From positions 64,001 to 128,000 of the forward strand of contig CAWDPO010000009.1 of assembly GCA_963804165.1 (NCBI GenBank): 64,000 nt of DNA, in the 5' to 3' direction. Positions 15,626 to 23,645 of this stretch are shown piece after piece; the stretch's first letter is position 1, and the number at the start of each line of letters is the position of its first letter. The translations under genes and the position numbers were made by a program. Source of the stretch: an uncultured delta proteobacterium. GTDB taxonomy: Bacteria; Desulfobacterota; Binatia; UBA9968. Under the pieces are notes generated by a model. The model saw only the letters and a program-made list of their open reading frames with translations. It searched no databases and was not told the origin of the DNA.

Positions 15626-15825
15626 CGGGGCCGTGAAAATCGTTAAGCGCGGCGGACCATTCAAAGGTTTAAAAGTTCAAAAGGAAACACACTCTGATCG
15701 GAAGCGCCACTTTCGCGAAGTTTAGAAACTTTTGGAAGTTTAGAAACCGGAAGGGAGTAGGTTGCTTCCGGATCAGCGACTCGCTCGCTTGACCCATTTC
15801 CGTGCAACCGATATTCTCGGATTTT

Positions 15826-16305
15826 ATGAAACAAACTATTCGGGTCACTATTAACGGTCGTCTTTATCAAGAAGATGTCGAGCCGCGAGTCCTGCTCGCG
15901 CATTTTTTGCGTGAGCAGATCGGCCTCACCGGCACCCATATCGGTTGCGTGGTCGGCGAGTGCGGCGCGTGCTCCGTGCTGCTCGACGGCAAAATCGTGA
16001 AATCCTGTCTCCATTTTGCTGTCCAAGCGGACGGCCGCGAGGTGACGACGATCGAAGGCTTGGCCAAAGACGGCGAACTCGATCCGGTCCAGGAAGCGTT
16101 CGTGAAAAATTACGCGTTTCAGTGCGGCTACTGCACGCCTGGCATGGTCATGACGAGCTACGCGCTGCTGCAGACAAATCCGGACCCGAGCGACGATGAG
16201 ATTCGCAAAGCGCTGGCCGGCAATCTCTGCATGTGCACGGGCTACGTGCAGATCGTCGAAGCCGTCAAAGATGCGGCGGAAAAACAAAAAACCGTGGGGA
16301 GATGA
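15826..16305 (+). CDS. (2Fe-2S)-binding small subunit (CoxS-like)
   Basis: GCVVGECGAC, FQCGYCTPG, GNLCMCTGY. Confidence 0.95.
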   Translation: MKQTIRVTINGRLYQEDVEPRVLLAHFLREQIGLTGTHIGCVVGECGACSVLLDGKIVKSCLHFAVQADGREVTTIEGLAKDGELDPVQEAFVKNYAFQCGYCTPGMVMTSYALLQTNPDPSDDEIRKALAGNLCMCTGYVQIVEAVKDAAEKQKTVGR

Positions 16306-19828: not shown

Positions 19829-19905
19829 CGTCATTCCCGCATGTTTTAAGCGGAAATCCAGGCGAATCCGATCTGGATTCCCGATAAAAGCAATCGGGAG
19901 TGACG
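19829..19905. repeat. CGTC-tagged REP-like doublet (palindromic)
   Basis: CGTCATTCCCGC...GCGGAAATCCAG...CTGGATTCCCG...CGGGAGTGACG. Confidence 0.75.
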
Positions 19906-20381: not shown

Positions 20382-21478
20382 TTAAACTTCCTTCGATTTG
20401 ATCGAATAGGTAAAGCTCTTCGCGTCGAGACTGTCCTTGCGGCCGTTCGCTGTCTCGGCCTGTGGATACATCAAATAGGCGATCTCCGAACCGCGAGATT
20501 GCGGCAGCTTTACATCGTGGGAGTAGTTATAGGGCAGCCAATTCATTTCCCATGCGCCGAATAGTTTTGCCCGCGCTTTTTTAACTTTGGGATCGTCGAT
20601 CGGCAGCTGTTCACCCGGCAGATTTTCTTCGAGCACGACCTTGCGCACATCCGCAGGATCCACCGGCACCCAACCGTACCCCGTCAAAAAAACTTCCGCC
20701 CGGCAGTGTTGCGCTCCGGTGATATCATCGGCTCTACCGAGACTTTTGAATTCCGCTGAATTGGCAACGCGCACGCCGTAAACGTCGCGCGCCGGCAAGC
20801 CGGCCGCGCGCGCCAAACCGACGTAAAGCGCGTTTAAGTCGGCGCATTTTCCGCCGAGATAGCCGGTTTCGAGCATTGTGGTGATATCGCCGATGCCGCA
20901 ACCTTTGACCTTAGGATCACGGAAGGTGTTGTCGACGATCCATTCGTAAATAGCCCGCGCTTTATCGACATCATTTTGTAGCCCCAGCACGATGCCTTTG
21001 GACGTCGTCGCGACGATGCCGTCGGTCCTAATGAACTTCGAGGGTTTGCGAAAATAATCGAGCACCGCCTTGTTCTCTTTGATCGCCGGATTGGGTTTCT
21101 GGCTCAGATCCACCGATCGATCTTGGGTCATAAAGCGGCTTTTGATTTCCAAGCTCGGGCTCTTTTCGCTCGCGGGCCCATTCCGCAAATACCAGTCCGG
21201 TTCCGACCTTGTCGGCCTGCGCCGCGCGCACGGTTTTATAATTTCCGCTCCAGCGTATCGGGCTCCCGTTTGAAATAGTCCGTGTTGGTCATCAGCGGCA
21301 CCGGCACCCAGGTGCGCACGGCGCCGACGGGATCGGCGATGTCGATCCGAGTCGTGACTTCGAAAGTGCGCCATTTCGCATCGTTGGCGTTCGCAAACGG
21401 TGCAAATTTCGGCAGACCGCCGAGCGCGAAGCCGGCAGAAACGGTCAGTCCTTGTTTGAGGAAATCGCGACGATTCAT
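20382..21478 (-). CDS. Tat-exported transglutaminase-like domain protein (frameshifted)
   Basis: MNRRDFLK Tat motif; GGKCADLN, HCRAEVF, WVPVDP catalytic Cys-His-Asp. Confidence 0.85.
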
Positions 21479-21619: not shown

Positions 21620-21644
21620 CGTCATGCCGGCGAACGCCGGCATC
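21620..21644 (+). repeat. Left half of CGTC-type REP element (5' exon of the intron)
   Basis: CGTCATGCCGGCGAACGCCGGCATC hairpin; continues as CAG after the intron. Confidence 0.75.
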
Positions 21645-23490
21645 GTGCGCCCGTGAGGGCGCCACATCAGCACGGTGAAAGTCCGTGTCGGAGAAAGCCA
21701 CAACTCCGAAGCCGAAGGTAACTGCGTCGCCGCGAGGCGGGGTGGGGAGCAACCGGAGGCGAAGTGTCGGTCCGTAGGATAACGAACTCGATTCGGCGGA
21801 GAGCTGCGACGAGCCTGCGATGCCAAGGTGAAGTCCGAAAATCGCTGGTCACGCTGGCGTGGTGGAAAGCGATGACCAGGCAGTTCACGTGGTTGGAGAT
21901 GGAACGACAAGAAGGTGTGGCGAAGTAAGCGGGGAGACCTGCGCCGTAGGTGAGCGGCGCAGGAGTCAGAGCCTTCATGGTACCGCAGCGGCGAGGAGCC
22001 GCGAAAAGCGCTGAAAGTAAAGCAGCGCCGAGGGACGGGAGGCAGGAAGGTAGAAGCGTGAGCGATACGGAGTGGCAAAGCGAAAGCCAAGCGTCGGTAG
22101 TGCCTGAGAGGGCTACACAAGGCGCAGAGACCCAGGGACGAGACTGGACATGGGTAGAAGCCACAGTGTGGAGTGAGCGCATGTTGGCGGCGCTGGGAAA
22201 CGGCGTCAGAGGAGGCAAATGGTTTAGCCTGATCGATAAAGTGTACCGACCACAGACGCTCAAGGCGGCGTGGCAAAAAGTAAAGAGCAACGCCGGAGCA
22301 GCAGGAGTGGATGGACAGAGCGTGGAGCGGTTTGAGTCGCGGGCAGAACAGTATCTGGAAGAACTTGGGCAAACGCTTAAGGCGGGACAATACCGGCCAC
22401 AGCCGATCCGGCGTGTGGAGATTCCCAAAGGGGGCGGCAAGCTGCGCCCGCTGGGAATTCCTGTGGTCAAAGACCGCATCGTGCAAACGGCACTGAAGCT
22501 GGTGATCGAACCGATCTTTGAGCGCGAGTTTGAGGACTCCAGTCACGGTTTTCGCCCGGGTCGCGGCTGCAAAGAGGCGCTGAGCGAAGTGGATGAACTG
22601 ATCAAGGAAGGCTACGCCCATGTGGTGGATGCCGACTTGGACAGCTACTTTGACAGTATCCCAAATGAGCCGTTGATGGGTGAGGTCTCGGAGCGGATTA
22701 GCGACGGCAAAGTGTTGGATCTGATTCGTGCATTTCTGAATCAGGACATCATCGAAGGGATGAAACGATGGACACCGGTGGGAGGGACGCCGCAAGGAGC
22801 GGTGATCAGCCCGCTTCTGGCCAATATCTATCTTCATCCCTTGGACCGGCAGATGAGAGAGAAGGGCTACCGCATGGTGCGCTACGCCGATGACTTCGTA
22901 GTGCTTTGCCGCACGGCGCAACAAGCTCAAGGTGCGCTGGGCGAAGTGAGAGCCTGGGTCGAGCAAAAAGGGCTCAGGCTTAATGCAGACAAGACCCATG
23001 TAGGAGATTGTCGGCAAGCCGGGCAAGGTTTTGAGTTTCTCGGCTATCGCTTCGAGGCGGGGCAGCGCTGGGTAAGACCCAAGAGCTTCAAAGCGCTGCG
23101 CGAGCGCATCCGGCAGAAGACCCAACGCACGCGTGGGGACAGCTTGGCAAAGATCATCGAGGATCTTAACCCGATGCTGCGCGGTTGGTTTAACTACTTC
23201 AAGCATGCTCATTCGGTGGCACAGCTAGGAATCGACGGGTTTGTCCGTCGCAGGCTCCGCGCGATTCTGCGCAAGCAGGAGAAGCGACCGGGGATAGGAA
23301 AATGTTTCCATGACCATCTTCGGTGGCCCAATACTTTCTTCGCGGCACAAGGGTTGTTCACCATAACTGCGGCCCGTGTGTTAGCGAGCCAATCCCGATG
23401 AGGAAACTACCGACTGGAGAGCCGTGTGCGGGAGAACCGCACGCACGGTTCGGAGGGCGGGGACGGCGAAAGCCGTTCTCGACCCCCTAT
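21645..23490 (+). mobile_element. Group II intron (complete, about 1.85 kb, RT/maturase lacking endonuclease domain)
   Basis: 5' GTGCG; domain V GAGCCGTGTGCGGGAGAACCGCACGCACGGTTC at about 23418-23451; domain VI ending CCCTAT; EBS1 GATGCC (21819-21824) complementary to IBS1 GGCATC. Confidence 0.93.
22058..23401 (+). CDS. ltrA: Group II intron reverse transcriptase/maturase
   Basis: GAAGVDG, RPLGIP..DRIVQ, SHGFRPGR, GTPQGAVISPLLANIYL, RYADDF, thumb LRGWFNYF; likely GTG start 22058 (ORF open from 21950). Confidence 0.95.
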   Translation: MSDTEWQSESQASVVPERATQGAETQGRDWTWVEATVWSERMLAALGNGVRGGKWFSLIDKVYRPQTLKAAWQKVKSNAGAAGVDGQSVERFESRAEQYLEELGQTLKAGQYRPQPIRRVEIPKGGGKLRPLGIPVVKDRIVQTALKLVIEPIFEREFEDSSHGFRPGRGCKEALSEVDELIKEGYAHVVDADLDSYFDSIPNEPLMGEVSERISDGKVLDLIRAFLNQDIIEGMKRWTPVGGTPQGAVISPLLANIYLHPLDRQMREKGYRMVRYADDFVVLCRTAQQAQGALGEVRAWVEQKGLRLNADKTHVGDCRQAGQGFEFLGYRFEAGQRWVRPKSFKALRERIRQKTQRTRGDSLAKIIEDLNPMLRGWFNYFKHAHSVAQLGIDGFVRRRLRAILRKQEKRPGIGKCFHDHLRWPNTFFAAQGLFTITAARVLASQSR

Positions 23491-23547
23491 CAGGTGACGG
23501 ACGGTCAAAGAGGATGGGGATGGACCTCGGTTTTCACCGGGGTGACG
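23491..23547 (+). repeat. Right part of the REP doublet (3' exon)
   Basis: CAG...TGGACCTCGGTTTTCACCGGGGTGACG ends with GACG, the inverse of CGTC. Confidence 0.65.
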
Positions 23548-23645
23548 ATAACGCCGAAAAGACGGGCACAAGAGTCGACTTCCAGTCGACAAATTTAGAA
23601 CCCTCGGCCTGGAACCGAGCGTTCGTTCAGTTACCCCCCTGGTGA

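Follow-up and report, generated by a model that had tools for sequence, protein, structure and literature searches.

An endonuclease-less group II intron lineage that probably retrohomes into DNA hairpins, identified in a CGTC-type REP unit of an uncultured Binatia bacterium

We analysed a stretch of 64,000 nucleotides (the window) from an uncultured delta proteobacterium of the Binatia (assembly GCA_963804165.1, contig CAWDPO010000009.1, positions 64,001 to 128,000), in which a group II intron interrupts a repetitive extragenic palindromic (REP) unit of the CGTC type. All coordinates are positions in the window, and the intron and its parts lie on the plus strand. Sequence inspection delimited a complete intron of 1846 nt at 21645-23490, with the 5' end GTGCG and the 3' end CCCCCTAT (CTAT). 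According to a blastn search it is the single full copy in the genome, which comprises 7.5 Mb in 46 contigs. The intron is placed antisense to both flanking genes, encoding a transglutaminase-like and an AhpC/TSA protein, which are on the minus strand. It belongs to a lineage whose insertion sites are, almost throughout, preceded by a DNA hairpin.

The element shows the general features of group II introns, namely GUGYG and AY ends, a domain V triad, a covarying domain I, an exon-binding site 1 (EBS1) in a terminal loop and, in domain IV, an open reading frame (ORF) for a reverse transcriptase (RT) and maturase. Rfam matches were obtained for domain V/VI (RF00029, 23417-23488, 53.7 bits at a gathering score of 40) and for D1-D4-3 (RF02001, 21726-21923, 41.7 bits at a gathering score of 32). 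The ORF for the RT with maturase (X) domain occupies 22058-23401 (+) and ends with the stop codon at 23399-23401; the frame is open from 21950, and the GTG at 22058 is its likely start. The protein contains the YADD motif, matches RVT_1 (134.6 bits, E 4.9e-39) and GIIM (58.5 bits, E 6.6e-16) and no other domain, and lacks the DNA-binding/endonuclease (D/En) region, no nuclease domain being detected.

The RNAalifold consensus of 24 diverse relatives places ribozyme domain I at 21650-21933 (coordinates mapped by hand from the alignment) and predicts 90 consensus pairs in it, with compensatory changes in 61, while a small hairpin at 21934-21967 (alignment columns 326-362) represents domain II. 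Within domain I, alpha (GCCAC, 21697-21701) pairs with alpha' (GTGGT, 21859-21863), which the consensus fold puts in the terminal loop of the D1d3 stem-loop. This pairing was found in 89.2% of cells with compensatory changes in 4 of 5 pairs; none of 500 shuffles scored as high, and slid controls reached 27-69%. Domain V was located at 23419-23451 by the RF00029 alignment and a regular expression. The original prediction had described it as full length with an AGC triad; the triad is there, whereas the domain has 33 nt rather than the canonical 34 and consists of a 9-bp lower helix, an AC bulge, a 4-bp upper helix and the 5-nt loop GAGAA. Forms of 33 nt, the common ones with a GAGAA or GAAAA loop, accounted for 57 of 65 matches to the regular expression (a few of them spurious), and the exact 33-nt form with the GAGAA loop for 29 of 65. 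Domain VI and the 3' end follow at 23453-23490 (RF00029 alignment), where A23482 is, by its position, the putative branch point. At 23484-23490 the window intron reads CCCCCTAT and nearly all relatives CCCCTAT, a difference of one extra C in the domain VI/3' end.

The 5' exon ends with one part of the split REP unit (21620-21644, +), in which a CGTC tag (21620-21623) is followed by stem arms at 21624-21631 and 21636-21643 around the loop GAAC (21632-21635) and by a C at 21644. The 8-bp stem (DNA minimum free energy (MFE) of the hairpin -9.4 kcal/mol, z -3.1) ends 1 nt 5' of the junction, so the insertion does lie at the 3' base of a DNA hairpin, as had been proposed. The 3' exon (23491-23547, +) starts with the C of intron-binding site 3 (IBS3, 23491), which opens the REP tail CAGG (23491-23494), and continues with TGACG (23495-23499) and a degenerate inverted partner unit (23520-23547). 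Removal of the intron had been claimed to restore a CGTC-type unit like that of the uninterrupted REP doublet at 19829-19905 of the same window. This was borne out by the intron-free 28-mer, CGTCATGCCGGCGAACGCCGGCATC joined to CAGG, which occurs exactly and uninterrupted five times elsewhere in the genome (e.g. at C3:34385 and C25:53187).

About 104 REP-like units were counted in the genome, 15 of which carry GGCATC, and the family is laid out in inverted doublets of the form CGTCA-T-hairpin-A-TCCAGG ... CCTGGA-T-hairpin-A-TGACG. CGTC-tagged REPs are described by Di Nocera (2013, PMC3733652) as having the CGTC tag, an 8-9 bp stem starting with AT, a 4-5 nt loop, a CCA tail and an arrangement in head-to-head dimers; the target unit has the tag, an 8-bp stem from AT, a 4-nt loop and the CCA tail and occurs in head-to-head doublets. 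The consensus given for the Neisseria NTS/Ssn-related motif (SRM) is nearly identical to the target unit (Nat Commun 2025, PMC11893778). Both the empty site and the 19829 unit fit the degenerate SRM pattern published there, which has 90 matches genome-wide. This literature on CGTC REPs, the SRM and the SsnA nuclease describes the target only and not the intron: the word 'intron' is absent from the text of PMC3733652, and the passages of PMC11893778 on the repeat motif and the cleavage site draw no link to introns.

The last six nucleotides of the 5' exon, GGCATC (21639-21644), five of which lie within the 3' arm of the hairpin, constitute intron-binding site 1 (IBS1) and are perfectly complementary to GATGCC at 21819-21824. 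Identification of GATGCC as EBS1 was upheld, since the Rfam alignment and the 24-relative consensus fold place it in the terminal loop of the D1d hairpin, closed by 21813-21816/21826-21829. The closing stem, GCCU/AGGU, is present as predicted, except that one of its pairs is G-U. Counting Watson-Crick and G-U pairs in 72 introns, EBS1 and IBS1 match in six of six positions in 58, in five in 11, in four in two and in three in one, i.e. in five or six positions in 69 of the 72. For the 26 distinct EBS1 sequences, the mean number of pairs was 5.6 with cognate and 2.6 with non-cognate exons. EBS1 and exon change in step, as illustrated by GATGCC/GGCATC in the window, GATTCC/GGAATC in L022 and TCATAC/GTATGA in L023. 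Among the irregular copies, L102 forms four of six pairs, and L110, on a Patescibacteria-labelled contig, has the EBS1 GAGTGA, which mismatches its exon, and a 5' exon similar to the 3' terminus of an intron from this family; the copy may be nested or decayed.

EBS3, the bracketed G in ACGTG[G]TTGGAG at 21892, pairs with the first base of the 3' exon, and such a fit was found in 64 of 67 introns (mostly G-C, also A-T, T-A and G.T), the misfits being L117, L123 and L079. No EBS2-IBS2 pairing was detectable when every 5-nt window of domain I was compared with exon offsets 0-21 in 24 sequences at fixed alignment columns. The sole domain I window above the permutation null was EBS1 itself, with 4.46 of 5 pairs compared to a null maximum of 3.42.

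When 40 related genomes were searched at the DNA level, the intron was detected in 13 of the 24 other genomes of the same genus, often at contig ends. The REP hairpin precedes 20 of the 21 same-genus 5' junctions (that of L039 was placed by eye), and the remaining one, L040, is too divergent to be placed. The sites are of two types, with the arrow marking the insertion point: type A, CGTCAT-hairpin-ATC↓CAGG, and type B on the other face of the REP, CCTGGAT-hairpin-ATGA↓CG; EBS1 matches each of them. The wider clade was collected by a protein-guided scan with one genome per species, and the best 80 of 195 tblastn-confirmed relatives have 59-86% RT identity. Their record titles name Binatia, "Deltaproteobacteria" metagenome-assembled genomes (MAGs), Acidobacteriota, Nitrospira, Desulfosarcina, Comamonadaceae, Burkholderiaceae and alphaproteobacteria, many of the loci being short MAG contigs with uncertain taxon labels. 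One copy, L071, 73% identical, sits in a CGTC REP unit on a contig binned as Klebsiella pneumoniae, a binning that appears doubtful.

In a plasmid collection, tblastn returned four records with 60.9-62.2% RT identity and a next best match of at most 42%. Judged by RT identity, the lineage is sharply bounded, with members at 59% or above and the best outside match in the plasmid collection at 42%. A plasmid of Rhodococcus jostii RHA1 matched at 40.9% in the same search and is tied to the intron Rh.js.I1 (g1) by the organism name only. A quick RT tree was built from 39 rows, with duplicates and introns lacking a resolved 3' end, including the Paraburkholderia group, left out. The window RT was sister to that of L053 (99), both within an 11-row clade (98) that mixes six A-type and five B-type sites, and the starred branches force at least three changes of A and at least five of B.

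Insertion sites were evaluated on 82 junctions (80 of them unique) that had 45 nt or more of 5' exon, with intron ends taken from nhmmer coordinates and other positions in the same loci serving as controls. The loci L026, L028, L029, L045 and L047-L049 come from G005 (unpublished). They account for the EBS1 type TCACTG and for three unique sites out of 80, and none of the conclusions depends on them alone. The flanks of homologues, inspected for unrelated targets free of hairpins, showed, in addition to the REP hairpins of the same genus, that 78 of 80 unique sites from the whole RT clade have a hairpin with 4 bp or more immediately upstream of the junction. Perfect stems of at least 6 bp ending 0-6 nt 5' of the junction were present at 53 of 80 sites compared to 41 of 1474 controls, and those of at least 8 bp at 34 of 80 sites compared to 2 of 1474. 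Over the last 32 nt, the DNA MFE had a median of -7.75 kcal/mol at the sites (n=80) and -2.5 kcal/mol in controls (n=740; Mann-Whitney p = 1e-35). The 3' end of the loop lies 9-12 nt from the junction at 72 of 80 sites (9-11 nt at 69) versus 150 of 1474 controls, and the modal distance falls within 9-12 nt in 29 of 32 EBS1 classes. The stem base is offset from the junction by 0-6 nt at all but 4 of 78 sites; of the 78 loops, 51 are 4 nt and 17 are 3 nt long. Intrinsic terminators were considered as the identity of these hairpins and rejected: among 49 sites with both exons, none has at least four T within 9 nt beyond the stem.

Multicopy CGTC REPs make up most of the targets. The original prediction also held that the lineage uses multicopy REPs. 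This stands for the same genus, for an alphaproteobacterial MAG and a Sulfuritalea MAG, which carry 43 and 19 empty CGTC units, respectively, and for Desulfosarcina alkanivorans, which has 33 matches to the target hairpin pattern, often arranged as inverted pairs, and none to the control pattern. It does not stand for Paraburkholderia: in Paraburkholderia humisilvae the target hairpin is present only two times in the genome, both occupied. As the Paraburkholderia target is not repeated, the common denominator is the hairpin and not repetitiveness. The hairpin would be the conserved requirement and REPs its commonest supplier. The Paraburkholderia and Caballeronia loci L117, L122, L123 and L125, although from different species, share a conserved 45-nt 5' flank that ends in the target hairpin, with unrelated 3' exons; the flank possibly represents one end of a different mobile element.

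A within-genome control is provided by a second intron family in the window's own genome (RF02003, 108.8 bits; ORF of 437 aa), with two copies that are 99.9% identical (G000:C17:20515-22562, i.e. L161 2016-4063, and L162 on G000:C12). Its 5' exons (...TATTG) have no hairpin, their DNA MFE being -2.8 and 0 kcal/mol.

We consider it likely that the intron represents an endonuclease-less lineage that retrohomes into DNA hairpins, here into a CGTC REP unit, so that hairpin targeting of the IIC kind would operate in a lineage outside class IIC that has specialised on REPs. EBS1 would pair with the last six exon bases and EBS3 with the first base of the 3' exon, both fixing the site, and the target stem-loop, with its loop ending ~10 nt upstream, would stand in for EBS2-IBS2. 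The upper stem left after IBS1 pairing would adjoin the helix of EBS1 and IBS1, an arrangement proposed for class IIC. Insertion would most likely take place on transiently single-stranded DNA at replication forks, on the lagging-strand template, where REPs can fold; the lower stem of the CGTC REP must open for EBS1 pairing, which argues for entry through single-stranded DNA. Because the intron protein has no nuclease, the nascent strand would prime cDNA synthesis. Changes of EBS1 would have repeatedly retargeted the lineage between the two REP faces and onto other hairpin repeats. The window intron is intact and probably still mobile.

The strand of insertion was compared with GC skew in the complete chromosome of D. 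alkanivorans, sampled in twenty 20-kb pieces. All eight copies lie on the strand with G>C, i.e. the lagging-strand template. The skew is mostly positive between ~4.76 Mb and 0.73 Mb (across 0), a single sample there being slightly negative, and it is negative or near zero at ~1.1-4.4 Mb; the plus-strand copies are found at 0.026, 0.678, 0.915, 5.28 and 5.74 Mb and the minus-strand copies at 3.469, 3.90 and 4.31 Mb.

Several observations speak against hairpin-directed retrohoming or temper the numbers behind it. The sites are not independent, many coming from the same repeat families or from short MAG contigs; since many share repeat families, the hairpin counts overstate independence. REPs are palindromic, so any EBS1 directed at a REP brings a hairpin along. 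IBS1 overlaps 4-5 bp of the CGTC stem, the lower part of which has to open, and the offset of the stem base is inconstant. Fewer than five pairs are formed in 3 of 36 distinct EBS1/IBS1 combinations, and the fixed-column EBS2 scan of 24 sequences could overlook a pairing in a length-variable loop. The Desulfosarcina skew is drawn from only twenty 20-kb samples, and the GC skew of the window contig (-0.022, weak and noisy) would, if anything, imply the other template strand. Furthermore, the antisense placement offers no obvious source of intron transcription, and with a lone genomic copy current activity is putative.

Recognition of the folded hairpin itself, which we infer from the site statistics, would be dispensable if homing depended on sequence only and survival did the rest. 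EBS1 and EBS3, perhaps with protein-base contacts, would then define the site, the hairpin would be incidental to the palindromic REP, and copies would persist in harmless intergenic repeats. This alternative, unlikely in our view but the best of those considered, draws on the position of IBS1 mostly within a stem that must melt, on the 0-6 nt range of the stem-base offset and on the description of REPs as harmless landing sites of insertion sequences (ISs) in PMC1525189. Safety and pairing alone, however, predict that sites are scattered over loops, 5' arms and spacers, whereas the 26 EBS1 sequences, on unrelated hairpin families, all fall at 9-12 nt. In addition, the Paraburkholderia branch uses a non-repeated hairpin, the other intron family persists in the same genome outside REPs, and the 7-mer GGCATCC occurs 1242 times genome-wide, yet 20 of 21 same-genus copies are in REPs.

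Targeting of hairpins has been described for class C (IIC) introns, B.h.I1, GsI-IIC and the E.r. intron among them, whose insertion sites come after terminator or attC stem-loops. A plain class C intron would share with the window intron the lack of an endonuclease and of an EBS2-IBS2 pairing, the upstream DNA stem-loop, the use of EBS1 and a one-base EBS3 and the preference for the lagging-strand template. Among solved structures, the RTs closest to the intron protein are of class C (6ar1, 240.8 bits; 7uim, 225.3 bits); T.el4h scores 170 and LtrA 153 bits. That the intron is merely one of these is nevertheless very improbable. EBS1-IBS1 pairing comprises 6 bp, with covariation supporting all six positions, versus the 3-4 bp given for IIC in PMC7923331. 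The loop here ends ~10 nt from the site and IBS1 overlaps the stem, whereas class C has a spacer after the stem. In the solved class C ribonucleoprotein, as described in PMC10190682, the DNA stem rests within a cleft formed by the thumb, the DNA-binding domain, D1d and D4a, and IBS1 and IBS3 are paired after the spacer, so that our hairpin is much nearer to the site than in that order of stem, spacer and IBS1. The targets are REPs without the T-run and neither terminators nor attC sites (0 of 49, see above), and RT identity outside the clade does not exceed 42% in the plasmid search. A shortened domain V is a trait of IIC; here the domain has 33 nt with a 4-bp upper helix.

Moreover, the alpha' in a terminal loop and the 5-nt loop of domain V, which differ from class C, are IIE/IIF traits according to Nagy et al. 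(PMC3753933), who place alpha' of these introns at the tip of the D1d3 stem-loop and describe a domain V loop of 5 nt in place of a tetraloop. By its predicted fold the ribozyme is one with IIE/IIF traits and not IIC, in agreement with the earlier suspicion that the intron falls outside IIC. Introns of IIE/IIF (classes E and F; g1-g4 of Toro and Martinez-Abarca 2013) also resemble it in the small IIB-like ribozyme and the RT-maturase without En. The published examples, as presented in PMC3753933, were picked for an apparent EBS2-IBS2 pairing beside IBS1 and treated as homing-site introns, whereas no such pairing was detectable here. RmInt1 (class D) similarly lacks En and relies on the replication fork for priming (treated in PMC4424553), but uses EBS1, EBS2 and EBS3 and a long homing site in an IS element, with no reported hairpin requirement.

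Hitch-hiking of the copies on the REP doublet or on another carrier that moves as DNA, in place of retrohoming, is hardly credible, for although REP doublets are thought to be mobile, the genome contains 18 matches to Y1 transposases and a GIY-YIG gene that lies between two units, and the Paraburkholderia copies share their 45-nt 5' flank, the 3' exons diverge straight after CAGG or CG, the 5' flanks beyond the unit differ, EBS1 follows the exon sequence copy by copy and this genome has a single copy. ISs that target REPs (ISPpu9, ISPpu10 and IS1397 among others; Tobes and Pareja 2006) resemble the window intron in the use of multicopy REPs as specific, harmless landing sites; they employ a transposase and move as DNA, whereas here an RNA loop would pair with the REP and insertion would proceed by reverse splicing.

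Retrohoming into hairpins can also be taken further than we do. The lineage would then embody a second, non-IIC mode of shape-guided targeting that measures off roughly one turn of the helix from the tip of a hairpin in single-stranded DNA and is locked onto CGTC REP/Ssn units, this type of REP being shared across phyla as a landing pad for horizontal spread; in the boldest form, a nick by the REP-associated single-strand nuclease Ssn would supply the RT primer, for which the intron protein has no endonuclease of its own. Ssn cleaves a few nt 5' of CGTC, as reported in the section of PMC11893778 on the cleavage site, and a nick on the opposite strand at ATGA↓CG sites would fall ~5 nt downstream of the insertion point. 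As a whole, we regard this extended version as improbable.

A search of full-text literature, which covered main texts, revealed no paper on a lineage of group II introns that targets REPs. The closest record was a table line on Pseudomonas putida KT2440, in which a group II intron is REP-associated in only 2 of 9 copies (Tobes and Pareja 2006, table in PMC1525189). Zimmerly and Semper (2015, PMC4424553) distinguish, in their treatment of targeting, three specificities, with the hairpin ones confined to class C. Sonbol and Siam (2021, PMC7923331) state that a role of upstream structure had not been reported for IIB-type introns, and the introduction of Gomes et al. (2025, PMC12584367) credits hairpin-guided insertion to IIC only. 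A separate lineage that lacks EBS2, has a 6-bp EBS1 and keeps a fixed distance to the loop would mean that structure reading arose twice or predates the split of class C, and suggests that the reading of DNA shape is not limited to one intron class. With its 26 EBS1 variants and its use of one repeat from both faces, it would also offer a set of naturally retargeted introns from which targeting rules could be derived, and it suggests a gene-targeting intron that needs just seven programmable bases and a hairpin. Furthermore, it ties group II introns to the REP/Ssn-motif repeats, the biology of which is only now opening.

Possible partners of the CGTC REPs in this genome were inspected as well. 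A small GIY-YIG gene (G000:C11:15857-16078, open frame of 101 aa) lies between two inverted CGTC REP units (region 15753-16124; L158 1397-1768), and flanking by inverted units is published for ssnA genes, which encode single-strand nucleases (described in PMC11893778). Three other small GIY-YIG genes in the genome have no flanking CGTC units. RAYTs were considered as partners and set aside: of 18 Y1_Tnp matches genome-wide, only one has a palindromic CGTC unit within 1.2 kb, so RAYTs are probably not partners of these REPs; many of the 18 matches have open frames of ~320 aa. A module of ~65 nt with two small hairpins (GTCGACTTCCAGTCGAC and CTCGGC...GCCGAG) follows a REP doublet in four of four genome copies (window 23574-23640, G000:C3:34481, C34:65492(-) and C40:157660), and in G005 it is also found after the 3' exons of introns. 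The module resembles a composite repeat.

In public reads, no run covered the flanks of the locus (depth 0 at 21300-21467 and from 23652 onwards, near zero in between), and the contigs obtained belong to related introns from soil metagenomes. Versions of the intron without the ORF, 733-741 nt long, were found in L021 (G021:C44:24045-24777), L022 (G019:C11:108-848) and L023 (G001:C350:3068-3802). They retain positions 1 to ~570 and ~1690 to the end, and all three occupy a REP unit that their EBS1 matches; presumably they are mobilised in trans. A joint that omits 22196-23377 was seen in two metagenome contig sets, one of DNA and one of RNA.

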